The notes beneath the pieces are model-generated. The model had not been told where the DNA came from, did no database searches, and saw only the letters and a program-made list of their open reading frames with translations. The position numbers were made by a program, and so were the translations under genes. A DNA stretch of 63,485 bases, the filler included, from Collodictyon triciliatum (taxonomy: Eukaryota), in NCBI GenBank assembly GCA_043381765.1. It is 8 parts of 8 records of this genome, joined end to end, with 100 filler letters (N's around TTAATTAATTAA, not from the genome) between each part and the next. Parts side by side here need not be neighbours in the genome. Positions count along the whole stretch, not along the records: positions 34,792 to 46,271 come from JBHJMP010002396.1; 7 more parts are not named here. One strand, 5' to 3'. Below are positions 34,792 through 58,542 of this stretch, piece by piece. Numbering within the stretch: position 1 is the stretch's first letter; each line of letters begins with the position of its first letter.

Positions 34792-35031
34792 GCCACTATA
34801 TATTCGCACTATAATACCTGATGGCCAAGTCTTTGGATGTTTGGGATGAATTTCGAACAGACTCCGACTCAACAGCCACTATATATTCGCACTATAGTAC
34901 CTGATGGCCACGTCTTTGGATGTTTGGGATGAATTTCGAACAAACTCCGACTCAACAGCCACTATATATTCGCACTATAGTACCTGATGGCCACGTCTTT
35001 GGATGTTTGGGATGAATTTCGAACAAACTCC
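34792..35031. repeat. 83-bp tandem repeat, about 2.9 near-identical units, cut by contig start
   Basis: Units start at 34792, 34875, 34958 (GCCACTATATATTCGCACTATA...CTCCGACTCAACA) and differ by a few substitutions. Confidence 0.95.
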
Positions 35032-36527
35032 TATTTAACTAGCATTATTCTTTCACACGGTAATTTATTGAATTTAAAAGAGCAGGATGTAGTTTAAGGT
35101 TATATCTATAATTATATGTTGTTATTTATTATATTCTATTGTTTAAAATCATAAAAGATATTTTTTAGAATACTTACATGGGTATTCATATGAAGCTACC
35201 GTTTTTCTGGTAACTTTAACGATTGAAGATATTTTATGTTGGAGAATTTTCTTTTAGTCTTGTTTATTATTTGTATTAAAATAATTAAATTTGAAATTTC
35301 ATTTTAAATATTTATCATATTTAATATTTCGATTTTATGACTGATTTTAAGAAAAATCTGCGGATTGTGCTGAGACCTACTTTCTTATCATGCGATAATA
35401 AATAGGTTGATAGACAAATTTGATCTTTTTTATGATTTATATATTCGTGGGCTTACACTCCCTTTTAATCATAGGTAATTGTAATACTGTCCAGTGGCAT
35501 GAGCTCATCTGATAAATTTGCTATGTATCTCTATTTTTCCAACTAGTTTTAATAAATTTATCAAACTGATGTCGATTTAACTTTTATCAAAGAGAGGCTG
35601 ATAAGAGGGATTTGCCAAAACTATGCACAAAGAGAAGAACAGAACAAACCATGTATCCAGTTAAATTGATTTATTAGTATATTTCATCAATATTTATAGG
35701 AAAACTTAATCTTTTTTTTAACTTGTATTATGAGACCAAAATATTTTTTTTTACTTTTTACCAAATTTATGATATGATCACTAGGTTTTTGGTTCTTCAT
35801 CATGCAACACAAAAGCGCTTAACCGTTTGAAGGTCATTTTAGACTAACGTAAAATTTTATATTAATTTTCATTTTAAAACGGGAACTTATGTAAAGGCCT
35901 CCCTAAAATTATCTGAACTTAAATTTTATTGTACTTATCTATAATTAAAAGGAGGCTTTACAACGATACTATTGTTACTACGAAAGAAATAACGTTACAA
36001 AAAATGCCCGTCCGAAGTTTACATAGTTTAGTGTCATATATATCTTAATGTCCAAAATATCTGGCGGGTGCTGTTAAATATTTATTATTTTGTGGCGCAT
36101 TCATATATTTGGTTGCCGTGAGCACATTTTTATCCACGAAGTACCTCTTGAATAAAATGAAATTTAAGAGCATGTTCTAATAGCTGATTGAGAAGCATTA
36201 ACACATAAGCATGATTAGATATACAGGGTCAAAATAAATTTGATAGATTATATAACGCACAATTACGGACTGTTGTATTATTTTGGAATATCTATATTGG
36301 AATTTTAACTCTTCAATTATTCTTAAATCAATTTAAGATAATGATGTCATTTTTAATGATTTAAAAAAAAAAGAGTCTTTTAAAGTAACAAATACACCAA
36401 AACTCCAACCAAAAAAAGGAGATATACATAAATACCCAATTACTTATTCTCAAAGGCATGAGTGACTCAAAGTCAATCAAAATCAATTTACCATAAGATT
36501 ACTTAAAAGACTAGGAATTTTGAGAAA

Positions 36528-39500
36528 CATGTCTGCAACCGAAACAAGCACCGAGGCCAACGTCAGCCTTGTCACCATTGACGAAGTCTGTGCAAATGCA
36601 TACATTACCTTCAAGAAATTATTTATATGTCGAAGAGAATTGATTACTTAATCTGGCAACTGAGCACAGGCTGTCCTCGAATGGGTGAACCACCACCTGG
36701 AAAAAATCGACCTCAAGGCGAAGAACACCCGCGATGACTTAATGGACGGATTCTTTTTGGCCATGCTGATTGAGGCGGTTACCGGAAAGTCCTTGGGAAG
36801 TTACCATTCCCGCTTGTTTGCGTATGATTTATTTATGATACTCACAATTTTAATACAATTTATTTTTTCATGGATTTGTATTTGATCCCTTTATTTATAT
36901 CAGTGACAAAGTTATTGAGGAGGAGGTTCTTGTTGACGAGAATCAAAAACTCATCGTTGATTGGTTTCTGAAATTGAATGTGCATGATGAGACTGTTGCT
37001 TCTCAGTCTCGTTACGCTGGTTTGCTTTATATGTTTTAAAAGGAAATAATATTGGAATTTTTCATATATCATCCATTTATTTTGTATGGGTAACTGACGT
37101 ATAAATATTCTTACAGATTTGCTCAATGCAATGCTCCAGTACCTTATTGGGCAAAGTGTTGGCCATTTGGGAAGTCTTGGGGTAACAAAATACACCTCCT
37201 TTTAATCTTTCATATTTAAGGTTTTTTTTTAATTTTTTGAACCATGCCGAAATATAATTTCCAATCGTTAAAAATTGTAGAAAAAATGTCGTGAGAGGTA
37301 CGATATTGCCAAGAAGCTCTACGAAAGAGCGAAGGCCCCGTTTCCGTTCCATGGTTGAAATTCTACATCTTTTTATTTTTATTAATTTATTGTTTTGTAT
37401 TTACTTCTCAACTAAATTAAATTTAAATATTGATGCAGGTCTTGGTCTGGAAGAAAAAGGCTCTGTCGTACTCATCCGCACTTGCATTCTTCTTGACAAG
37501 GTAACTAATAATTAATAAATGAAATAAGAAAAATTTGACCAAAATCATTCCGTTTGGTGGAATATAATGTCCATTTCAAACCAGATGAAGCTTGCTCGTG
37601 AAGACCTGAAGGAGAGGCAATACAAGAAGTGGAATCCGGCTCCACAAAGATACCTGACACCGACACCATTGCCGCTCATTGTCTTTGACGAGCGTGTCAT
37701 CCGTGTTTTCCTTTCCTCCACTTTCCGTGACATGCAGAAAGAAAGAGACGAGTTCTTCAAGAATGGAGCCCCTGAGTTAGTTCAATATATTTTTATAATA
37801 AATTTATGATAAGGAACGATAATTTGATGTTTTTATTTTCCTTACAATATAAATTCAATGTCAGGTTGAAAAGACTTGCGAAATCATTGGGAGTGGACCT
37901 TGTCTTTATCGATTTGCGCTGGGGACTGACTTCTGTGGACAGTAGCGAGGGATGGGTAATCAGAATATTATTAACATTATTTTTGAAACTTTCATTATAC
38001 TGCAATTTATATAATAATGAACTTTAATTTTCTTTTCTTGCTTTGTTTTCATAGGTCGTGATTCGCTGCTTGGATTCCATCGGAAAATGCCCATACTTTG
38101 TGTGCTCTCTCGGTGCGCGCTACGGCTGGATTCCTGACCAGAACAAAACGGAGCTGAACAAGCAAGCCCGCCTTGAGCAGCTGCTGAATACCAAGCCTGA
38201 TGCTACCATGAAGGATGTTTGGGTGGAATGGCGCAGTGAAACGAATAGCCGCTTCCCATTCATTGACAGAATGCCTGGGTTGAGTGTGACTGAATACGAG
38301 GTGAAGCCAATCTCTACATTTTATTCTGTATCTTTTTATGAGTAATTACAATAGAGAAATTAAACCAATCATTTTCTAAATTATATATTCATATTAAGAT
38401 TCAACACGCCTGTCTGATTGACAAACCAGCATGCAGCCGCGCCTTCTTTTACCTCCGCGATGAGCACTATGCTGTCGAACATGCCCAGAGCGAGGAAGAA
38501 AGAAAGCTGTTTCAAGCTGAAAGCGAAGAGGCGGTAAAAATTGATAGAAATTCTTTAATCTTCATTTTCAAGTAATTATGTTATGTTTATTTAATGATTT
38601 AATTTTTTGACACTTGTTTTAATGTATTTTTTTAGCGTAAGAGGCAGGACGAGCTCAAAGGGAAAGTCAAGACCAAGTTCGGGCATGTTGTCTACAAGGG
38701 AGCGAAGGAGTATTCGGACTTTGTGACCTACCATCTCACCTACGCCATCGAGCGTGACTTTGGGAAGCAAACTGTAATTTTTATGGATTTATGGATATCA
38801 GTATTGATTGGTGATATGCATTTCATTTCATTTATATTTTGTTCTCATAACTATATCATAGGTGAGAGACCCTGAAGACCAAGCTCAGCACCAGTTCAAG
38901 ATGCATCGACTGGCTGGGTTTGGTGGAAGAAAGGAGCTTCTCAAGACAATTACGGAGCAAGTAAGATAAAGATCAATTAATTAAAAATGACAATAATATC
39001 TTTGATTTTTTTCTTATCAATAATTTTTTTTTATTAGGCCATGAATCAGCTGAGCACGGAGAAATCCAAAATCATCGTTCTTGCTGCCGAGTCTGGGATT
39101 GGAAAGTCGTCGCTCATGGCTGCTACAGCGAGAGACCTTGAAGGGTTGAAGCATCCTGGGCTGCATGTCTTTTTCCATTTTGTTGGATGCACCAATCTCA
39201 GCAACTACGTAGAAAGGTTAATTTCTATTTCTTTTTGTTTTTATAGATATAAAGATATTATTTTGGTTTTTCTAAAAATATTTGTTTTATATTAGTGTAT
39301 CGATTCGCTTCTGGACTTTGGTCGCAAACTCTGCCAACTTTGTCAGGGAAAAGAAGCAAGAAGCTGGTATTGTAATTAATTTTATTTTTATCTTTTTAAT
39401 CCAAATGTCGTATAACAATTCTTCAGGCATTTACTTTATTTTTACCACCAGAATACGAAAAAGAGGGACTCCAGGGCTTGCTGAAGATGATTCAGGAGAA

Positions 39501-42500
39501 AAACAAGTAATACGTCAATTTTTTTGTATTTAAATTATAAAATCAAAATTAAAAATATTTTGTTTCAAATAAAAAATTGATATTAAATTATGTTTTATAG
39601 GGACGAGAAGTTTGTCTTTCTGATCGATGCCATCAACCAAATCCACCCGTCGCAAGGAACGCCAGCTCCGCATCTGCTGACCTGGTTGCCCAAAGAAACG
39701 CCAGCTAATGTTGCCATTGTTGTGTCGACCATTCATACCCATGAATCTTGCGCGGTATTTATCATTTAATAATATTTTTTGGATATTTTTATATTCTGCA
39801 TAAAAATGATTTGAGTGGAAGGTTAATTAATCTATATGTGTCATAAGTCTGCCAAGCAAAGTGGACTGGAGCCGATTCCTGTCGCCAAGTTGACCGAGGG
39901 CGAAATTAAGGATGGTGTCGAATCCTTCCTCATTCGCTATGACAAGACCCTGAACGAAAAGCAAGTTGGAATGATTCTGGCTGACTTTGAAGATACTGGT
40001 GAGACATTTTTTCAAAAGAATATATTTTTATTAAATTTTTTCAAGGTATGATTTAGTTATACTTATCTAATATTTTATTATAGGCCATCCGCTCTATCTC
40101 CGCATCATTCTGGATGAAGTCAGGGTCTTTGGAGTCTATGAGAAGCTTGACGATGAACTGTTTGCGCTGCTTTCAACCAACGGTGTCATCGAGCTTTACA
40201 CTCTCATTATCCAGCGCTGGCAACTGAAGTTTGACAGGAAAGGTGAGTATTGATTTCATATTTCACAAAAAAAAAAATTACAATTATAATTGCTATTTTT
40301 GTTGAATGAATCTTTTTTATTGTACAGTCTCCTCGTCTGATGGAAAAGAGACAATGAAGGTCGAGTATGTCTCCCTCTCGATGAAGGTTCTCTTTGTCTC
40401 CCGCATCGGTCTGAGTGAAGTTGACTCGGACAAGTACATGAAAGACGCGATTGGCGCAGGATTCGAGCTTGCTGAATGGTTTGCTTATTCTTGAATTTTA
40501 ATAGAATTAATAGGTTAACTCTTATCTCATTTTCTTTTTTATTTAACTTATCTTTTATTCATTAAAATAGGAAATCCTTCTTCTTTACCCTCATCGAGTC
40601 GCTTTTCGTGCGCAATGGAAGGTTACTTTTATTTCTCAATCCTTTTGTTAGTTAATCTGTGCTTTCTGTATAATTATATTTGGATAAAAACTCAATAATT
40701 GCGTATCATAGATATATGTATTTCCACCAGCTGCTGTTGGAGACCACCAAAAAGGTCTACTTCACCGAAAACCAGGAGATGGAAAAAACCCACGAAAAAT
40801 ACGGAAAATGGCTTTTTGGCCAATATTCTGAGGCTGCCGACGCAGGTGAGGAGCTTGCTGCTGAAATATGCTACCAGCTTCTGAAGGGCAGTTCGTTTGA
40901 CTTGCTTGTGGAATACATGAAGCAAAAACATGTGATTTTTTTATTTAATTATTTTCAGTCATTATGAAACGGCATTCACTGATTAATTTTTAAAAAAATT
41001 TTAGGTTATCAGCATCATGCTTGGTGGCCGCTATCGCTACGAGTTCTTTACATGCTGGAGAGCAATCAACGCAAGTGGAGCGGCAAACTACAAAGATGCC
41101 TATGGAAGCTTGGCTAAGGTTATTTACTATTTAATTTTAATTTTTTGAAAGTTACTACTCACAAATTTAATTATCAATCATGATTTATCTATTAATTTTT
41201 TTAAAATTTTCAGTCTTTGGATAATGTGGGAGACCTGCTGGTTGGATTTTTCCTGGAGTCTTTTGAGAATTCGTTCTTGTTATCTGTTCTGAATGTGCGT
41301 CTTGGAAAGCATCAAACAGAAGGTATGCAACTTATTGTTATTTTTTGAAGAATTTAAGTCATGAATATGATTTTATATATGGATATATTCAATAATCTAT
41401 CAATTTACAGATGCGAAGGCTGCTGATTACCTGAATCTTGGTCGTGTCTACAAGAACCTCCAAAAGTATAAAAATATAAAAATCCATTAATGATTATAAT
41501 TAGGACATGACATGATGCTTATAATGCTAACTTTTCTAAAATAAAATAAAAATAAACAGCTGGGCTGAGTCCATGGTCTACTACAAGAAATGCCTCAATT
41601 CAGTTGAGAAAAATGCAGATGACTCCTTGCGTATCGCTACCATCCATGAAGAAATGGGAATAATCTACCAGCAACAGGACAAGTCAGGCTCTCTTTCAAC
41701 TGTAAAATAAATAATGAATAATGTTTCAAAAAGGAATTATTCTGATTTGCTTATTATGAAACAGAATTGATGAAGCTCTTGATGAATACAAGAAATCACT
41801 GGAATTGAGAATCAAACAACTGGGCGAGAACGACTTGCAAGTGGCCCAATCATATGACCGCTTCGGAGACATATATGTGAAGCAGTCAAAGTAATAATTG
41901 ATTCATCTATATTCGTTTTTTTTTTTTTGCCTTTATTTTGTAAATATATATGTATGCTGATCAATTTTTTATGATAGGAATGAGCAAGCTCTGGTTGAAT
42001 ACACAAAGGCCATGGAAATTCGCCAAAAGAAAGTCGGAAACGAGCATCCTCTTGTCGCAACATCGTACCAGAACTACGGCCATGTCTCTCTGGCTGGGAA
42101 AAAGTATCACATATTCATTCGATTCAAACTGGTTTTAAATCAATTATGATAATTTTGATAAATATTAATATGATTGAATCATCAAGGTATGAAGAGTCTA
42201 TTGAAAACTACGAGAAGGCGAAATCAATCCTTGAAAAATCGCTGGGAGCTAAGCATGCATCTGTTGCCTCGACAATCCAGTTTATTGCGAGTGTTCATCT
42301 TGCCAGTGGAAAGTTTGGATTTCTAAACTACAGATAATTTCATAAAATAATTATTTCTTTCAATTTTTGCAAAATGAGTTTGGCTTCATATATTTCATTT
42401 ATATGGACTCTATTTGGAGTTAATTTTATTATATAATATAATCAATTAAATAAATATCAAATAAATATCGTCTTATATAGGAAAAGTGAGGCCTTGTCCT

Positions 42501-45500
42501 CATTAAAGCAATCGCTGGATATTTTCATGTCTGCCTTGGGTGAAAATCATCCGAATGTTGTGGCCTGCTATGAGATGATTGGAGACATCAGCCATGATTT
42601 GAAGGAGTATCTCTTTTTATAAATTATTTTTAATATTTAATTGAAAACAATAATGTATTTACTCACATTATCCTAGCTTTAAGGATGCTCTGGAGGCCTA
42701 TACAAAGACGCTGGATATTCGCGTGAGAACACTGGGCGAAAGACATGCTGATTATGCTACTTCCCTGGAGAATGTTGGCCGAACAAACTTTGAGCTTCAA
42801 AGGTAGATTTCTCTATTATATTCATTAATCGAATATTTTTATTAATAGTTATAAAAAACAATACAAATATGAACTAATATGCATGCATTTAGATTGGACC
42901 AAGTCGTTGAATACTTCCATAAGGCAGCTGCTATCAGAAAGGAGACAAAGACTATCATATCACTGAAAGTTGGTTTACAGATTGACAACATTATCCGATT
43001 CATGAAGGATAAGAAAGAGCACGAAATCGCTTCTTATATGTACAAAAAGCTTATGCATTTATTCAGCAAGCTTTACTCCATGGATTATCTTGGACTATGG
43101 AACAGCTGCAAGGAAATTGACAAGATTTACAAGAAACTGAAGCAGCATAACGAAGCTGTGGCATTCTGGACTGAGATGAGAGACATGTTTGCTGATAAAC
43201 TCGGATGGATTCACCCCAGAACATTAAACTCGTGCGAATACTTGTCCGTCCATTCAAAGGAAATCGGAATCAACAAAGAGCCTACCGAGTTTATAAGAGT
43301 CAAGGAATTCATCAGTGAAACTCTTGATGATGCAAAACTAGATGAGGAGTGGAATTGTGAGCAAATAATTGTATTATCATTCAGAATTGTCTACATGTCA
43401 AAGACTGATGAAAGCAAATCAAAGGCTGCGTCTGATGCAATTACACTTTTGAATTTCATGAAAGTTTCGTTCGGTGGAATGGATTTATCAAACATCAAAA
43501 TTCCACATGCAAATCTCAGTAACTCAATCCTTGACGGTGCAAACTTCGCTGGTGCCAACTTGTATGGCGTTGATTTCACAAATTCGATGCTTGGTGATTG
43601 TGTTTTTGACAATCCGAATATGAGTAATGTGAAATTTGGATTTCTGAATGATAAATTTGAAGGACATACAGATCGTGTCATGAGTGTTTGCAGTTTTCAA
43701 GGACCGAATTGTGAAGATTGGCTGGCTTCTGGAAGTAGAGATAAAACAATACGCATTTGGGATGTAGCCACAGGGAAACAAATCAAAACATTAAATGGAC
43801 ATACAAACGACGTCTGGAGTATCTGCAGTATTCAAGGACCGAATGGTGGAGATTGGCTGGCTTCTGGAAGTAGAGATAAGACAATACGCATTTGGGATGT
43901 AGCCACAGGAAACCAAATCAAAACATTAAATGGACATACAAATTCTGTTATGAGTGTTTGCAGTATTCAAGGACCGAATGGTGAAAAGTGGCTGGCTTCT
44001 GGAAGTATGGATAAAACAATACGTATTTGGGATGTAGCCACAGGAAATCAAATCAAAACATTAGAAGGTCATGCAGATGGTGTCACCAGTGTTTGCAGTA
44101 TTCAGGGGCCGAATTATGAAAAGTGGCTAGCTTCTGGAAGTTATGATAAAACAATACATATTTGGGATGTAGCCACAGGAAATCAAATCAAAACATTAAA
44201 TAGACATACATGTGAAATCTGGAGTGTTTGCAGTATTCAAGGACTAAACGGTGAAAATTGGTTGGCTTCTGCAAGTGATGATAAAACAATACGTATTTGG
44301 AATGTGGCCGCAGGAAACCAAATCAAAGAATTAATAGGTCATACAAAAGGTGTCAGAGGTGTTTGCAGTATTCAAGGGCCGAATGGTGAAAGGTGCTTGG
44401 CTTCTGGAAGTGATGATAAAACAATACGTGTTTGGGATTTGGCGACAGGAGACGAAATTAATAAACTAGAAGGTCATACAGAATCTGTCAGTAGTGTTCG
44501 TAGTATTCAAGGACCGAATGGTGAAAGTTGGTTGGCTTCTGGAAGTGATGATAAAACATTACGTATTTGGGATATAGCCAGTGGAAACGAAGTTAAAATA
44601 TTAGAAGGTCATACAAGTAATGTCACTAGTGTTTGCAGTATTCAAGGACCGAATGGTGAAAATTGGTTTGCTTCTAGAAGTAATGATAAAACAATTCGTA
44701 TTTGGGATGTAGCCACAGGAAACCAAACACACAGCCTACAAAAATCAAAAGTAACCTGCACCCAAGGAAAATATCTTGTCAACAAAGAAAAGCCAGACGA
44801 AGTCATCGCAGTATTCAACAGAACAAGTGATGCGATGAACATGATTGATTCCAACAGAATCCAAGATTCAAAGACAGTCCAGATTATCGGCCCAAGAAAG
44901 CTGCAGGGTGGAAACATCCAAATTAGAAATGTCACAGGGTTGAGTCGATTCAACAAAACCATTCTACTTACAATCGGAGCTGCTTCCTTTGATACAGGCT
45001 TTGCTTCCTATTGTGAGCAGGGTAAGTTCACCAAGTTCCAGGCTCAAATGATGGCTGAGTGCTATGAGAATGGATGGGGTATTGAGGAAGACATCGAGAA
45101 GGCAGCTGGGTGGTTTATAAAGGCTGGAAACTTGGAAAAACCGAAGCAACTCGCACAACAAGGTTCAAAAGAGGTATTCAATGTTTTGAAAGAAATGGCT
45201 GACGTGAAGGAAAATATCATGGACATATGGAGAAGAAAAATTGGTGAAAAACACAAATATCCGAAGGCTGTTTCCATCGTTGCAGAATGCTACGAGAATG
45301 GATGGGGTGTTGAAAAAGACACCATGAGAGCAACTGAGTTGTTTGGAAGGACTGAAAACTTTGACAAGCTGAAGGAACTTGCACAACAAGGCTCAAAAGA
45401 GGCATTCAATATTTTGAAAAAAAAGGCTGAAATGAAGGATAACGTTGGTAGATATGATGAAAAATGCAAATATCCACAGGCTGTTTCCATCCTTGCAGAA

Positions 45501-45776
45501 TGCTATGAGAATGGATGGGGTGTTGAAAAAGACACCATGAAAGCAACTGAGTTGTTTGGAAGGACTGAAAACTTTGACAAGCTGAAGGAACTTGCACAAC
45601 AAGGCTCAAAAGAGGCATTCAATGTTTTGAAAGAAATGGCTGAAATGAAAACATGGGATAAAAAACTCAAATATCCACAGGCTGTTTCTATTGTTGCTGA
45701 ATGCTATGAGAATGGATGGGGTGTTGAGAAGGACACCGAGAAAGCAGCTGAATGGAGACAGAAAGCCTCAGCTTAA
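36528..45776 (+). CDS. NLR-like STAND protein: CH domain - DUF4062 - NACHT/AAA-like NTPase (NPHP3/TEP1-type) - TPRs - pentapeptide repeats - 8 WD40 - 4 SEL1-like repeats
   Basis: CH-like VLEWVNHHL..DDLMDGFFLAMLIEAVTGK; DUF4062 IRVFLSSTFRDMQKERD..IDLRWG..CPYFVCSLGARYGWIP..SVTEYE|IQHA; Walker A AESGIGKS; Walker B FVFLIDAINQI; GHPLYLRIILDEVRVFG; 42-aa TPRs (LGENHP type); terminal coding exon 42893-45776. More than 20 introns in the 5' two-thirds; phases of exons at 37.1-37.5 kb not fully resolved. Confidence 0.88.
43662..44726 (+). repeat. Eight tandem 135-nt (45-aa) high-identity WD40 coding repeats
   Basis: GH codons at 43662, 43797, 43932, 44067, 44202 (RH), 44337, 44472, 44607; consensus GHTxxVxSVCSIQGPNGExWLASGSxDKTIRIWDVATGNQIKTLx. 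Confidence 0.97.
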
Positions 45777-47088
45777 CAAGGTAAGTATCATAATAAATAC
45801 ATATTGATATATGTTCGTTAACTATAATCATTTTAGATGGAGAGATTCTCTGGGTTTTTTTCAAGCAGACCTCCGCTTTTTTCCCACAAGGACGCTCCAT
45901 GAAAACAGAATAAAACCATAAAAATGAAAGCAAAGCTGATCAATCTGTTGAATCCATTTTTCCTTTTTCGTTTTTCCTTTTTCTTTTTTTCTTTTTTCCT
46001 TTTTTTTCTTTTTCTTTTTTCCTTTTCTTTTCTTTTTTCCTTTTCTTTTCTTTTTTCCTTTTCTTTTCTTTTTTCCTTTTCTTTTCTTTTTTCCTTTTTT
46101 TTCTTTTTCTTTTTTCTTCTTTTCTTTTTCTTTTTTCTTCTTTTCTTTTTCTTTTTTCTTCTTTTCTTTTTCTTTTTCTTCTTTTCTTTTCTTTTCTTTT
46201 TTCTTCTTTTCTTTTCTTTTCTTTTTTCTTCTTTTCTTTTCTTTTCTTTTTTCTTCTTTTCTTTTCTTTTCNNNNNNNNNNNNNNNNNNNNNNNNNNNNN
46301 NNNNNNNNNNNNNNNTTAATTAATTAANNNNNNNNNNNNNNNNNNNNNNNNNNNNNNNNNNNNNNNNNNNNAATAAAAAATAAAAAATAAAAAATAAAAA
46401 ATAAAAAATAAAAAATAAAAAATAAAAAATAAAAAATAAAAAATAAAAAATAAAAAATAAAAAATAAAAAGAGAAGAAAAGAAAAAGAGAAGAAAAGAAA
46501 AAGAGAAGAAAAGAAAAAGAGAAGGAAAGAAAAAGAGAAGGAAAGAAAAAGAGAAGGAAAGAAAAAGAGAAGGAAAGAAAAAGCAAAAAAAGCAAAAAAG
46601 CAAAACCAATAAACGAATAAATGGAACATGAATAATCTTAAACAAAAAAACTGTGCGTTGTGAGTTCCAAAGGGCAATCCAACTTTTTGGAAGAGAGGAG
46701 AGGAAAGAGGGCATACATGAATCAGGTTACAGTATAAAACAGAAATTAGGGAAGCAATCACCTCCATGTGATATTTCATTTTTTGATAGATTTTCCCCTC
46801 CAACTCCATGCTTTATCACAACCCCATAAAACCCAACCGAAAGTAATCAAGAGACATACAAAACTCATCCACATATATTGAGACATTCGTTTATTTCTCT
46901 TCGCTGCTGAATACAGGCTTCTGCAATCTGTTCCGTGCGCTGACAGATGGTTCTGTAGACGCCTAAGTGTTATAATTGCTCTTTCATTTCATATTGTAGT
47001 GCGATTGACAAATAATATCAAAGCAATACCAAAACTCGCAGCAATCAAATCTTGAGGAGAAGCCTCCGGACTGCAGTAGAACATGAAA

Positions 47089-50000
47089 TCACAATCCGGA
47101 GCCTTCCAAGTGCGCTTGAGTTCGCGTTGGTGTCTCTTTTTCATTCAACCGGGTCATATGGGGTTGTATGTCTCTGGTGATTACAGTATCTGTTTCTCTT
47201 CGTTCAACCAATTTTGTAACCCGAGAAATCTCTGCTCTGTTCTTTGTAAACACCACCGCCCCGATGGTCAGAAAACCTGCTAACCCGACGCATCCGAGCA
47301 AACCGTAAAGAAGCTTCATGAACATTCCTCCACCTTAAATATTGAACATTAATAGACCGAAAAGCTTAAAAGTTATTGTTGAATGATTTAAATAAGATTT
47401 TCCAATACTGGCACTGGTACGTATGAATATACAATTCACCTTGGTGCTCGTTTCTGCCGCTGAAAATTCCGATGTTTTTAAGTCTGCCATCCGCGATGGC
47501 GCTCTCTAAGTCAGCTGCAATCTTTGACGGCTTATTTTCAAGGATGTAAATCAGCATAAATCCGCAATTCGATAGCATATAAAAAAAATTACAATGTTTC
47601 TGAAAGCCTCGAATATACGTTTTTTTTTTTTTTTTGTTCTAACGTATGATTATAAATATATTACCTCCCACTCATTCGATTCACAGACGCTCACCGACAA
47701 AGCGGGAGAGCCATTCTCAGTCAAAATATCCAAAGGTGACACGTACAGAGAGTTCCTCGGGACACCAAGTTCTTCCGCCACCTTCTCCAATAGGCCATAT
47801 GTTTCCTTTTTAAAGAAGGAATCGTTCTCTAGCAAGTCGAAAAGTGTCTCATTTTCGTTTCTTTCCGATTGAAGCAATTTTGCGAGGGCTGGGTTCTGCT
47901 TCTCTGATATAGGTAAAGTGACCGCTTTTGTACTGGGCCAAAGTCTCTTCGTTATGCTAGTTATGAGTGGATATCCAGATGTAAAGTCGTCTAAATCCAT
48001 AGCCCATACCATACCACCGCCCATACCCCTTGAGATTAGATAATCCACTTTGGCCTCGAGTGAGCTTTGGTTGTCAAAAGAGACCCACTGGTTTCCGAGT
48101 GTGAGAAAAGGGACTCGACGGGCTTTATCGTAAAAAACCCTGGCCTTTCTACTTATCATCGTTTGTATCTCATACCAAGAAAGAAATCCAGCTTCCCCTG
48201 TGATAGTTCCAGCGGTTCCAGGCCCTGATGCCGGAGCTCCCATTTTGCGATTGTTTGGATCCACTAAATGAGGAGTTCAATAATATTTAGGTTAGGCTAG
48301 CAGATTTATAGATATGCATTTATTTTTGTTTGTAATGCGAAATTAAAACTAGTGAATCCGAAAGACAATCACCTAAGGTCCAGGAACGTCCATACGTGGG
48401 CAATCCAAGGACAAGTTTCGATCGAGGGACTCCCTTACATTATGAATGATAGAAATATTCAAAACAATCGGAATCTCATGTGAAATATTTTCTTTTCATC
48501 TCTTAATGAAATCAGAAGAATAAACAAATGCGATACCCCCTTCATCCACGCTTTCACTGCGCTGTCGATATTTAAGGTAGATTGAGGGTCATACAAAGGT
48601 GAGTTTGCACCAGTAACAGACTCCCAAGAGCCATGAAAATCGTAAGTCATCAAATTGATAAAGTCCACTGTGATATTTTGGTATAAGTTTTAGAAACGGC
48701 GGGGTGTTTTCCTCATCATCAAAACCATTAAATGGATTGATTAAATCAAGATGTATTATCGGATGTCTCCATTAAATTGTGTACGATTACTTACAATAGG
48801 GATGTATATTAGGAATATCGTATCCAGCTTTTATTTGCGACAGTCCTGATGGAGCAGCAATTGTGAGAAGCAGCCTCCTTTTCCCCTTTGGTATGGACTC
48901 TGCGTTTATTGCAGCTCGGAACTCTTTCAGAAGCAGGGGAAAATTCTGAAAATCTCTTGCTTGTCCGCCCTACAAGAAAAGGAAATTAATCTATTATGAG
49001 AGATTCAAAGTGACTGCTAAAAAAATCCTATAAAAAACCCTTGGTACGGTTTCAAAGGAGTAATTTCTTCCCTATATTCGATTCAAAGTGCAACAGGGTC
49101 ATGTCATACAAAGAGTTTCAAAGGATAAATAGATAGTCAATATTAGTCAATTCAAGGAGACCTGGTCCGGCCAACCAGGATATTCCCAATCGATGTCTAG
49201 CCCATCGAAATTGTTTTGTCGCAGGAACTTGATTGCATTTGTGATGAATGTGGCTCTATTTTGAGTCGTAGAACACATATCCGAAAATATCGTCTTCGTC
49301 GCTGTGAAGTAATTGAAATTCCATCCACCGATGGAAATCAATGTTCTTAAATGCGGGTATGTAGACTTCAGACTATTCCAGTAGATAATCATTCAATAAA
49401 CATAATATGACAATTAAAAAGCCACACACTATTGAATTGATAGTATATATCTAAACATTCCTGCTAAACATGCCCAAACTCACATATTCCATAAAAAATT
49501 ATTTATGTGACCAAGAGATTCTTGATATAATATATACTTATTGAATCTTTGGTACATCCCTTGGGTGTAATCAAGAATATCGTTCCATTCGTAAGGTTGG
49601 ATGAGCCAAGTGCCAGCCTCAACTTTGGCGAATGCGAAGTTGAGATGAGTGAATAGATTACCATTCACATTCTCGGGAAAGAACTTGTATTTTCCGTTTG
49701 CCGCCGAGCGATACTGTGACCAATTAGTGTAATATCCAATCATTCTCTAGTCGAAGAAGAGATTGTTTAATGTTAAGAGTTATTGATATCAGTAATATAA
49801 TATAAATAATTATCTTGGTTTCTAGGCTCATGCATTTTATATAGTCCAAAAGTATTATGACAAAAAAATTGATGCATTAATGGGTAATTACGTATTTGGA
49901 GCTTAAGGTTGTAATTCGATTCATTTGTTCTAAACCATTAACCCCTATTAACATCGACTCTCCGACCAACTTCGAGCAGCTCTTGCAGTCTTGTGGGCAA

Positions 50001-50801
50001 TTGTTGCAATTTTCCAATTTTTCCTGGCAGATGTTGTCACCACAGAATTCCTTTATTTCAAGTTGCTGATTACCAAGGCTTTCTAAAAAGCCAGTACAGT
50101 TGTGATGTTTTTTTGAAACTAGTGCTCCATCAAAACAAACTGTGCCAGCTTTTCGGGAGAGGAGTTAAATTGTTATCTGATTAGAAAAAAAAAGTTTCGA
50201 TATGGTTAAATTGAAAAAAAAAAAAGAGGGTTTAGTGTGGTATAGAAAACACAAACGAGGTGAAAGTTGAGTTTCTGATGGCCTTTGCTTCTTGCACAAG
50301 TAAAAATGACTACTGCAATCATTTTGGGAGCAAAATAGACCGTCTCTTGAACATTCACTTTTGCGTTCTTTCAAATATTCATCACCAGAGTATTCTCTCT
50401 GAATAGCTGCATTAAATCTAGATGCCTGTGTACCGTGGTTACCACACACTTTTTCATCACTAGGAATCAATGACCCTTCCACACAAATGGTTCCTCCTAT
50501 ATTATAGGTGCACATGTTATGTTATCGTTTGTACCTCCAATTGGTAATATTTTATATTAATTGATTTGCTGTGCTATTTTCCAAAACCATATTCACCCGG
50601 TGATTTATGCTCTGGTGACACCTTCCGGTCATACCCGCAAAAGCGATATAGTCCGGAACAAAGGGAATCATGACAAAACAATAAGTCATCCTCTTGACAA
50701 CTGTCCCCTTCTTTAACAGACTCGTAAGAAATTTTCTCTGCGCCGCAAGTCACCAATAGCATGGAGACAGCAAGAACAACCATACTCTTCCATTTTTTCA
50801 T
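47089..50801 (-). CDS. Type I membrane-anchored GH18 chitinase with N-terminal Cys-rich repeats
   Basis: Signal peptide [21 protein letters not shown]; two Cys-rich repeats; [16 protein letters not shown] motif; [24 protein letters not shown], intact catalytic [57 protein letters not shown]; stop 47089. Confidence 0.93.
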
Positions 50802-51653
50802 TTTTCTTTCCTTCTGACGTTTTGGTATGTGATTTAACTATATATTTGTTTAGTTAGTTTTGCATAATTTAAGAAAGTCTCCTCAAGAAATCACATTTAA
50901 TGGTGATGCACACACATGTCGCTATGTTTCTATCCACTAATCACTGGCTGGGCTGGTCATGTCCTTTAAATACATCTTGAAAATCAAGGGTGAGTCAATC
51001 GTAACATTAAGACACGTACAATCGAGAAACTATGAATTCCATATTATAGCAACACCTGGCACCTATGAATCATTACATGCCTTCTCCTTTTTTTTCCCCC
51101 TTTTTTTAATTCTATTTTATCGCGGGTGCAATCTAGCGCACGTGAGTCTTGTGCTCCGATTCGTTCGCCTCAGGCCAGCCCTGACCAAGAAGGGAAAGCC
51201 AAACATGGACTTTACAAATCATACCAATTTAGGCCAATTGATTTCATCCACATAAATAGAAAAATGACCTAAGAAACCGAATTCGTCCAAAACCCATAAT
51301 AATTTAGTCAGAATGCTTCTTAAAGTGGCGATTTAGGATTTCTCATTCACTCTTATCTGTTCCATCAGCGATGTTGATCGAGCGTTCTTTTCCATTGCGC
51401 CTGATGGTGGAGACATTTGACAACCCAATCAAACTCGAAGCCGACCGCAGAACAGACAAGCGAGACAAACCACATATATTACAAACAACTCACCTGCCCA
51501 CGAAAAAAGAAAAAGAAAAAAAAAGTAACCACAAAATACGAACAAATAACCCACTCACAAGACACATACACGCACACGTTTGACTTGAATCCCAACACAA
51601 AAGGATGTTAAATTGAAAGGAAGAATAAAAAAAAAACACACACACACAAAAGG

Positions 51654-57346
<5,693 letters not shown>

Positions 57347-58542
57347 GTAAGTTAGTCAATACTATGCTCAGCAATTCTTTAATGACATAACCTCGCTACA
57401 CTTTGAATCGAATAAAGGAAAAAAAATGTTCAGCAATTCTTTACGTGAAATAAAACTATGTTGTAAAGTATATTTAATAGCATTATTTTTTTTTTTTTTT
57501 TACATTTGTGCCAAATCATGGGGAAAAAATGCATTCATTTGTTTACACACCTAGACATCATTATTAAATGTGGGGGCATCTTCTGGTCGTAGATATGATT
57601 CGGTATGCATTTTGGCTATACGGAAGATATTTTGAGTTTCACGACTCTTGATGTAATATCCTCTGTTTAAACTCTTCACATTTCTACAAATATGTCTCCT
57701 AACTAAATTGTTTTTTTTTTTTAATAAATAAATAATTCCAATCAGCAATTCGATTTTCATGCTGCTGCTGGTTAGTATAATTAATATAATATATTTCCCT
57801 AAAATCTTCAGACTACAAGTCACTTTTTTTTTTTTTTTTTTTTTCTTTTNNNNNNNNNNNNNNNNNNNNNNNNNNNNNNNNNNNNNNNNNNNNTTAATTA
57901 ATTAANNNNNNNNNNNNNNNNNNNNNNNNNNNNNNNNNNNNNNNNNNNNCCACGTGGATGCAAAAGACCGAGAGCGCAAGCATCGCGGCATACGCCCCGA
58001 TAACCTCCGGTGTTTCCGCCACGGATGCGATCATGTGTGCGATCTGTCTCTGCTTATTTTTTTTGTTTTTTGTTTTTTGTTTTTTGTTTTTTGTTTTTTG
58101 TTTTTTGTTTTTTGTTTTTTGTTTTTTGTTTTTTGTTTTTTGTTTTTTGTTTTTTGTTTTTTATAATCCCTGATTTTAACCATGCGACGCCGTGTGGGCG
58201 ATCCAGAAACAAGTCTGACAAGATAAGCAACCAAGAAGTAGGTCTGAAGCTCAAGTGGCAGACTCTCTTTCCTTTCCACCCTAACCCTTTCCTTTCTCCC
58301 CACAACCAACAAATGCGCGTGATTCTTTTCTCCTCCTTTCATCCTCTCATTCGTTCAATACAAACACTTGTATCTCCACCTGCGAGTTCAACCCTTGTTG
58401 GCAGTCTCGATGCGCTGTGCGCAGGTACAAGTCATCTACTGCAAGACTGAGTCATCGTGCGATGCGGCATCCATGAGCGGGACACGAGTGCGTCTTTTCC
58501 AATATACGTTTCTTTTATTCCGTGCGCCTGCTTGACACATGG

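Follow-up and report, generated by a model that had tools for sequence, protein, structure and literature searches.

Gene model and catalytic core

The DNA analysed here, called the window, is a stretch of 63,485 nucleotides from Collodictyon triciliatum (assembly GCA_043381765.1). It consists of eight records joined with N filler, and its parts need not adjoin in the genome. The part from 34,792 to 46,271 (JBHJMP010002396.1) contains a gene for a large multi-domain protein with a NACHT-type ATPase core. The G+C content around the gene is ∼36–39% and the DNA is eukaryotic nuclear. The splice model comprises 31 exons on the plus strand, from an ATG at 36529 to the stop codon at 45776, with introns of ∼55–170 nt and donors that are mostly GTA. 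It predicts a protein of ∼2176 aa (after correction of one exon end) in which a CH-like region, DUF4062, a NACHT P-loop NTPase, a helical region, TPR, pentapeptide, WD40 and Sel1-like repeats follow each other in this order. A sequence-only reading of the window had proposed that one spliced frame joins DUF4062, the P-loop NTPase, TPR, pentapeptide, WD40 and SEL1-like repeats, with CH-like exons before them. The splice model, the Pfam matches and colinear open reading frames (ORFs) of the protist Diphylleia rotans all bear this out. Judged by sequence comparison, 36529–45776 is almost certainly a single, intron-rich nuclear gene from a relative of Diphylleia (Collodictyonidae, CRuMs), and we regard the gene and its architecture as close to certain.

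The splice search was scored by codon log-odds trained on the long exon, combined with simple donor and acceptor scores, and it was limited to open frames, i.e. in-frame stops were forbidden. Plus-strand stop-to-stop ORFs within 36.4–45.8 kb are short, except for one of 967 codons at 42873–45776. Pfam was run on 16 stop-to-stop ORF pieces and half of them (8/16) gave matches. The gene is lopsided, as thirty short exons (51–273 nt) are followed by one intronless exon of 2884 nt with four repeat modules. This layout could be the result of 3'-biased intron loss, or that part of the gene could have been gained as a block.

With the 91-aa DUF4062 exon as query, a word-index search returned P0009, a 97%-identical fragment, and P0010 (1245 aa), an ORF from the EukProt Trinity data of D. 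rotans, a species that the NCBI taxonomy places in the Collodictyonidae, CRuMs. P0014, P0015 and P0017 are likewise D. rotans transcript ORFs. P0010 and the model align colinearly, starting in the CH-like exons and reaching the first TPR (522/1000 identities), and this alignment backs the doubtful small exons 39296–39366 and 40571–40621 and joins the CH-like region to DUF4062. Model residues 18–1831 are matched colinearly by P0015 (2619 aa), with 49% identity over 1864 columns and no frameshift needed, and P0017 covers model residues 755–1965. Both the link from CH to DUF4062 and that from TPR to WD40 are spanned by these cDNA-derived proteins of relatives.

The colinearity with P0015, the intact catalytic and P-loop motifs, and the terminal 2.9-kb exon, which is a plain ORF of 967 codons that needs no modelling, make it very improbable that the locus is a decaying or silent copy, or a repeat assembly artefact whose open frame is partly a product of the model. 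The splice search did force open frames, the repeat arrays are 80–88% self-similar and can mislead assemblers, and the closest database proteins are only ∼50–60% identical. However, the units differ enough (mean 80.5% identity) for unambiguous assembly, and the 97%-identical fragment P0009 and further cluster members occur independently in public assemblies. What tells against the single-gene model is that its support consists of de novo Trinity assemblies of another organism, D. rotans, which can mis-join repeats, and that the start codon is uncertain. The model is weakest at the putative first coding exon (36529..36585, plus strand, splice model), for which no homology was seen in the extended N-termini of the D. 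rotans relatives; an alternative in-frame ATG is present at 37585, and a search upstream for exons corresponding to the extensions in P0010 and P0015 found none.

The CH-like region and a connector are encoded on the plus strand by five exons (36670–36821, 36904–37019, 37117–37181, 37281–37353 and 37439–37500), as indicated by Pfam and alignment. The Pfam CH profile (PF00307) scored 24.4 bits on the piece 36664–36885, against a cut-off of 26, and 34.1 bits on the homologous region of P0010, which is above the cut-off but covers only profile positions 3–76 of 109. The region aligns to P0010 (E = 3e-22) and P0015 (E = 1e-24) and is present in three of the four D. rotans proteins that include the N-terminus, P0167 being the one without CH.

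The DUF4062/TeTIR TIR-like domain occupies 37585–37775, 37865–37955, 38055–38300, 38399–38533 and 38636–38773 (plus strand), based on Pfam and the alignment of the relatives. Its third exon, as modelled at 38055–38327, ended 27 nt late, and the end was moved to 38300 because four relatives are without the nine extra residues. Pfam DUF4062 scored 20.7 bits on 37528–37809 and 24.0 bits on 38055–38345, both just under the cut-off of 24.7 because introns split the domain. The corresponding score for P0010 was 42.9 bits, and the DUF4062 region of the window is 59–64% identical to P0010 and P0015. The P0010 domain matched the TEP1 TIR-like crystal chain 11gz_A (E = 2.9e-17), and the two are aligned by an ungapped block of 86 residues. 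The TEP1 numbering was fixed by F902, S905, R908, R914, R942, W943, C959 and R976, which fall on the right letters. SVTEYE in the window protein aligns with SVTEME in TEP1, which places the predicted catalytic Glu (codon GAG, 38298–38300) at E1008; the alignment of the window protein to TEP1 is transitive via P0010, not direct. These eight residues and E1008 were all kept in 5/5 sequences, namely the window protein and four D. rotans relatives. The RWG loop is encoded in the second DUF4062 exon (37865–37955).

DUF4062 has been described as a TIR-like NADase by Osinski et al. (10.64898/2026.05.01.722283). In that preprint, human TEP1 depends on E1008 for the hydrolysis of NAD+ and NADP+, its activity rises with protein concentration, and the products of the TEP1 domain are only ADP-ribose and nicotinamide, with no signalling nucleotides. 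Hornebeck et al. (10.64898/2026.09.21.753143) named the domain TeTIR and describe it as always directly upstream of a NACHT ATPase with WD40 or TPR downstream; they note a few fungal and protist members and report that mutating F902, R914, R942, C959, R976 or E1008 abolishes TEP1 NADase activity. Both 2026 preprints, cited here and below for the passages of them that were available, place the TIR-like domain upstream of NACHT in TEP1, NWD1/2 and NPHP3. In the window gene the P-loop exon follows DUF4062 within ∼90 residues, i.e. DUF4062 lies immediately upstream of NACHT. From the observed conservation of the catalytic residues we infer that the window protein may hydrolyse NAD(P)+.

The NACHT-type P-loop NTPase was assigned on the plus strand to 38862–38960, 39038–39216, 39296–39366, 39452–39506, 39601–39754, 39848–39998 and 40084–40242 from Pfam and motifs. 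Walker A reads AESGIGKS (39086–39109) and Walker B reads FVFLIDAINQ (39611–39640), so that the STAND core claimed in the sequence-only reading, DUF4062 followed by a P-loop NTPase, was recovered with both motifs. The P-loop piece 39038–39295 gave weak Pfam matches to NACHT (17.3 bits), NPHP3_N and AAA_16, while P0010 narrowly passes NACHT (27.4 vs 26.7 bits) and nSTAND1 (32 vs 27.1). The NTPase region is 57% identical to P0010, within a range of 55–59% for P0010, P0015 and a further D. rotans protein, P0165. It is followed by a helical region (40328–40478, 40571–40621, 40712–40931, 41005–41118 and 41214–41322, plus strand, splice model), which had no Pfam match in the ORF-piece scan and is 52–60% identical to five D. 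rotans proteins over 200 residues.

TPR array, junction and terminal exon

In the splice model the TPR array starts with a unit that is split between 41411–41465 and 41560–41682 and continues with five single-unit exons (41765–41890, 41978–42103, 42187–42312, 42481–42606 and 42677–42802, all on the plus strand). These five exons have 126 nt each, corresponding to one 42-aa unit, and all share the same codon phase. Pfam TPR_12 matched three exon pieces with 23–29 bits (cut-off 30.1), and the array aligned near-full-length (263–267 of 265 residues) to P0015, P0166, P0017 and P0165. The intron 42313–42480 has 168 nt, about twice the usual length in the gene. An extra TPR exon hidden in it was considered and rejected, as a 126-nt exon and a second intron would not fit into this length and no additional unit is seen in the relatives, four of which align to nearly the whole array.

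The last intron (42803..42892, plus strand, read from the sequence as GTAGAT...TTTAG) has 90 nt, canonical GT...AG ends and an intron-like composition. At the junction, CTT CAA AG is followed by the intron gtagat...catttag and then by A TTG GAC CAA, which gives Q-R-L-D-Q, and the terminal exon starts at the same unit point and phase as the five preceding 126-nt exons. The sequence-only reading had stated that the exons at the 42802/42893 junction join in frame and complete a TPR helix. The sequence is exactly as claimed there, and three D. rotans ORFs, P0015, P0017 and P0014, align across it with 0, 0 and 1 gaps, respectively (345, 349 and 287 columns).

The terminal exon opens with a TPR-like helical linker of 186 aa (42893..43451, plus strand), identified by an AlphaFold2 model and HMMER. 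The model was made for the whole terminal exon, with an alignment of five relatives, and had a mean predicted local distance difference test score (pLDDT) of 80 and a predicted template modelling score (pTM) of 0.45; the latter is low, so that the model is no reliable guide to how the modules are placed relative to each other. It contains ten helices in terminal-exon residues 2–188, and the first 188 residues are thus predicted to form about five further degenerate TPR-like hairpins. These hairpins were missed by Pfam, yet they match TPR proteins in the exhaustive search. Instead of the 7–8 TPRs counted from the sequence alone, the array would have six canonical 42-aa units on exons and about five further helical hairpins in the terminal exon.

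The exhaustive HMMER search covered 1.84 billion representatives, with the first 186 terminal-exon residues as query, and gave 160 matches at E ≤ 1e-3, which were mostly generic TPR proteins. Only P0014, P0015 and P0017, all from D. rotans, matched the whole linker strongly (E 1e-22 to 2e-32). A word-index search for longer proteins with the first 260 terminal-exon residues returned only 8 generic pentapeptide giants and missed the relatives. In a metagenome locus scan the linker had one weak match of 28 residues (L001), which was judged spurious.

Retention of the last intron leads to an immediate stop (AGG TAG), and an in-frame ATG is found at 42879, 74 nt downstream. The locus has therefore been considered as two adjacent genes as well, a CH-DUF4062-NACHT-TPR gene ending at the TAG after 42802 and a pentapeptide-WD40-Sel1 gene starting from ATG 42879. 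Set against the ORF gap of only 90 nt, with its canonical GT...AG ends and intron-like composition, and a downstream exon that keeps the unit point and phase of the five 126-nt exons, such a split is highly unlikely, even though the evidence for joining the halves comes from another organism's transcripts. The first 186 downstream residues are themselves TPR-like, three D. rotans ORFs cross the junction and both halves are found in five. The end of P0010 coincides exactly with the exon-boundary position that corresponds to 41682 in the window, which would suit two genes and also means that short forms may exist. Within the single gene, short sensor-less forms may be made by intron retention. 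As an observation on the frame, retention of the last intron would give a CH-DUF4062-NACHT-TPR protein without pentapeptide, WD40 and Sel1 repeats.

Downstream of the linker, ∼12 units of pentapeptide repeats were identified at 43452..43655 (plus strand, Pfam and model). PF00805 scored 52.1 bits against a cut-off of 20.2 in the sub-range scan, the model predicts a strand residue every five residues in terminal-exon residues 190–250, as in the periodicity of a beta-helix, and the repeats are kept in 5/7 D. rotans relatives. The WD40 array at 43656..44735 (plus strand; Pfam, Tandem Repeats Finder and model) has eight units, each 135 nt or 45 aa long. Pfam WD40 matched the terminal ORF with E = 1.6e-77 in 8 stretches, Tandem Repeats Finder reported 135 nt × 7.9 copies with 82% matches, and eight four-stranded blades are predicted for terminal-exon residues 262–641. 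The mean pairwise nucleotide identity of the units is 80.5%. At least four different residues were found at unit positions 5, 6, 8 (after GH), 20, 27 and 44, which we take, from WD40 structures, to lie on the top face of the propeller.

The post-propeller connector (44736..45020, plus strand) has partly low model confidence (pLDDT < 50 for terminal-exon residues 617–672), and its later part is present in 5/7 relatives. Four Sel1-like units and then the stop codon follow at 45021..45776 (plus strand; Pfam, Tandem Repeats Finder and motif). The motif ECYENGWG occurs four times (45057, 45285, 45498 and 45699). Sel1 (PF08238) scored 83.7 bits against a cut-off of 30.7 in the sub-range scan, where two stretches pass alone, and E = 3e-21 in the full terminal ORF. 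Tandem Repeats Finder reported 213 nt × 2.5 copies with 88% matches, and helical hairpins are predicted at terminal-exon residues 685–959. The Pfam, Tandem Repeats Finder and motif counts agree with the earlier count of eight WD40 and four SEL1-like repeats next to the pentapeptide repeats. No LRR family was among the matches on the exon pieces, on the terminal-exon sub-ranges or among the best 25 families listed for the terminal ORF, the middle of which is accounted for because the eight WD40 units fill it. The protein is NLR-like in logic only, without an LRR array.

The family in Diphylleia rotans

A search with the DUF4062-NACHT part of P0015 gave 12 proteins at E ≤ 1e-5. Four of these were from D. 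rotans (the query P0015, P0165, P0166 and P0167), and the remaining eight, the nearest outside the clade, had 22–24% identity. The nearest prokaryote-labelled NACHT-WD40 relatives were 23% identical. D. rotans alone has no fewer than seven different Trinity genes of the family. When the DUF4062-NACHT-helical core was used for a maximum-likelihood tree, the window gene and six D. rotans proteins fell into a 100/100 clade on a long stem; the tree had 12 rows, three of them under half filled, and the order inside the clade was unresolved.

The TPR, linker, pentapeptide, WD40 and post-propeller segments and a Sel1-like unit are present in 5/7 relatives (P0015, P0165, P0166, P0017 and P0014). Of the other two, P0167 is TPR-only and P0010 stops at the exon-boundary position. 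The sequence-only reading had regarded the gene as chimeric. An idiosyncratic chimera was not borne out, and a recent or one-off chimera was rejected, as the relatives share the layout. The related proposal of module accretion holds in a modified form: the accretion predates the radiation of the family because the whole arrangement is common to 5/7 relatives, and it is the extreme C-terminus, where tails and Sel1-like counts differ, that continues to look accreted. The WD40 regions differ greatly in extent among the D. rotans relatives. The window gene has four Sel1-like units, whereas P0015, P0017, P0014 and P0165 have one each, and P0166 has one and then a different tail. The last ∼230 residues of P0166 were observed to contain W-rich beta-type repeats after the single Sel1-like unit, and its precomputed Pfam list includes PF06701, which is presumably MIB/HERC2. 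The extreme C-terminus is a swappable end of the family.

Taken from these comparisons, the family appears to be lineage-specific and multi-copy, with the composite layout as the norm. The possibility left in the sequence-only reading, that the architecture is already in databases, proved correct in that it occurs as EukProt transcript ORFs; the relatives' sequences are public but unannotated. A single-copy orthologue conserved across many eukaryotes, which that reading had named as contrary evidence, was not found in these searches, the nearest proteins outside the clade being the 22–24% identical ones. No paper pairing Diphylleia rotans with NACHT was found in the literature search.

Some features of the surrounding DNA were recorded as well. 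GC skew peaks at 44–46 kb (0.21). A pyrimidine-rich, (TTTTC)n-like tract lies at 45957–46271, ∼180 nt past the stop codon, and runs into a masked N block. Paired 44-nt N runs, 12 bases apart, occur at seven places (e.g. 46272–46315 and 46328–46371), none of them inside the gene; the first five pairs are spaced ∼11.58 kb and the last two are closer, and they look like masking rather than assembly gaps. The remainder of the window (1–35000 and 47000–63485) also contains a TM7S3/TM198-like protein and an alpha/beta hydrolase.

Proposed function and comparison with known systems

Taking TEP1, plant TIR-NLRs, APAF-1 and bacterial STAND defence proteins as models, we consider the protein to be probably a receptor with a composite sensor that oligomerises when triggered by a ligand and depletes NAD+. 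In the STAND logic summarized in PMC7159879, cited for the part that was available, a repeat-bound ligand frees the ATPase, which oligomerises. In the resting state of the window protein the C-terminal repeat superstructure would keep the ATPase closed. A ligand would bind the repeats, most likely at the variable top face of the propeller, and would permit nucleotide exchange and oligomerisation of the NACHT modules. Oligomerisation would bring the TIR-like domains together and switch on NAD+ hydrolysis. An infected or damaged cell would thereby be depleted of NAD+ and would stop growing or die. The CH-like region may tether the protein to the cytoskeleton.

The sequence-only reading had called the protein an intracellular non-self sensor. 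We still infer such a role, and with it ligand activation and defence, from the architecture; the idea has become stronger because DUF4062 was reported as a TIR-like NADase in 2026 and the tested residues are intact. The WD40 variation at six positions and the differing array lengths and tails were counted in favour of a diversifying sensor. For a defence role as such we consider the odds about even. A fuller version, possible but on balance doubtful, is that the collodictyonids own an expanded family of immune receptors that combine a catalytically competent TIR-like NADase tethered to the cytoskeleton, a NACHT switch, a four-module sensor and short forms made by intron retention. The sensor would in that case begin with a TPR solenoid, continue with a pentapeptide beta-helix and a WD40 propeller that is hypervariable, and end in a swappable tail (Sel1-like, MIB/HERC2-type or none).

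Several observations weigh against a receptor with a role in defence. The ratio of non-synonymous to synonymous substitution rates (dN/dS) is 2.5 at the six variable WD40 positions and 0.37 elsewhere, but this is descriptive only and circular, because the positions were picked for variability. The other genes in the window are housekeeping genes, for ribosomal protein S3Ae, an oxysterol-binding protein, an SRP54-type GTPase and a GH18 chitinase, and are intron-split. No second copy of the gene was found in the window by tblastn with the model, all 23 high-scoring segment pairs lying within the gene, and tblastn gave no second STAND gene in the window either. With housekeeping neighbours and no paralogue in the window, there is therefore no defence-island context. 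NPHP3 has a ciliary, non-immune role. TEP1 sits in the vault, likewise a non-immune role (10.64898/2026.05.01.722283). Purified NWD1, NWD2 and NPHP3 were without NADase activity, so that three of the four human members are inactive in vitro (10.64898/2026.05.01.722283), and the domain alone therefore does not guarantee activity.

The same gene could instead encode a constitutive scaffold or housekeeping enzyme, either a cytoskeleton or flagellum assembly factor or a vault-like regulator of NAD+, with the repeats as fixed binding platforms. The work of TEP1 inside the vault and the inactivity of NWD1, NWD2 and NPHP3 in vitro (10.64898/2026.05.01.722283) would fit this, as would the reported link of NWD1 to purinosome formation (PMC7186558, cited for the part that was available). 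CH, TPR and WD40 modules are, moreover, common in cytoskeletal and ciliary proteins, and the other genes in the window are of the housekeeping kind. At least seven family genes in one species with varying WD40 array lengths and tails, unit variation concentrated at six positions, and all nine tested catalytic and substrate residues kept in 5/5 sequences speak against such a role. Neither the linker search nor the DUF4062-NACHT search found an orthologue outside the lineage, which would be unusual for a core cellular machine. We consider the scaffold or housekeeping role unlikely, and the ligand-triggered receptor is preferred.

The DUF4062/TeTIR-NACHT pair of effector and switch is of a known kind. 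New are the union of four repeat classes (TPR, pentapeptide, WD40 and Sel1-like) within a single chain, the CH-like extension at the N-terminus and the protist-specific multi-copy family. The main text of either 2026 preprint has no mention of pentapeptide, Sel1 or calponin, and their supplementary figures may list more architectures. The animal DUF4062/TeTIR-NACHT proteins were tied to NAD+ cleavage only in 2026, and the same effector-switch pair is now found in a deep-branching protist lineage, in a multi-copy family with the tested catalytic residues intact. Its sensor unites four repeat classes in a fixed order and offers a natural system for how modules cooperate in a STAND receptor. Two further questions become accessible, whether TIR-type NAD+ depletion defends single-celled eukaryotes and how old the TEP1/NWD/NPHP3 group is. 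If the immune-family reading were true, a free-living unicellular predator of a deep eukaryotic branch would have TIR-NADase/STAND cell-death immunity with diversifying repeats, and its targets could be giant viruses, intracellular bacteria or undigested prey. If the protein were a housekeeping scaffold, it would merely be an unusually elaborate member of its family.

Compared with the DUF4062/TeTIR-NACHT proteins of animals (TEP1, NWD1, NWD2, NPHP3 and TTC41), the window protein has the same TIR-like DUF4062 directly upstream of NACHT, with repeats after it. It keeps the RWG loop of TEP1 together with the catalytic Glu and the Arg, Phe and Cys residues that contact the substrate there, and NPHP3_N, TPR_12, TPR_NPHP3-type repeats and TEP1-type propeller profiles were all matched. 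Unlike the animal proteins, which in the available text of 10.64898/2026.09.21.753143 have either WD40 or TPR repeats, the window protein has both, with pentapeptide repeats between them and Sel1-like repeats after them. The N-terminal extension of the window protein is CH-like and not TROVE-VWA. The window family is also multi-copy in the protist, forms a clade on a long stem, and shares only 22–24% identity with the TeTIR family outside Diphylleia.

Fungal HET-E/NWD NACHT-WD40 proteins have regular arrays with few variable positions per unit. The window protein resembles them in its combination of NACHT with a highly regular WD40 array, in the few variable positions per unit and in paralogues that differ in repeat number. 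It differs in that the effector is TIR-like and the N-terminus consists of a CH-like region and DUF4062, with no HET or related fungal domain, and in that the propeller comes after a TPR array and a pentapeptide module. The identity of the WD40 units (80.5% at the nucleotide level) is presumably lower than in the fungal arrays.

Plant TNLs and SARM1 share with the mechanism proposed here a proximity-activated NAD+ cleavage of the TIR type, on a STAND or oligomerising scaffold after sensing by repeats (10.64898/2026.09.21.753143, and established knowledge). However, the ATPase of the window protein is NACHT-type and not NB-ARC as in TNLs, no LRR was found, and its TIR-like domain is of the divergent DUF4062 branch. 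In bacterial conflict systems, the available part of PMC7159879 lists pentapeptide repeats, TPR and WD40 with NACHT as alternative modules, not as this chain. Among bacterial defence proteins with DUF4062, 'Evangelion', as far as its available description goes, has the same catalytic domain family. Swarozyc assembles on the phage portal and has helical stalks instead of a NACHT-plus-repeat body, but it too has the catalytic domain family of the window protein and uses it for abortive-infection NAD+ depletion (10.64898/2026.05.01.722283).

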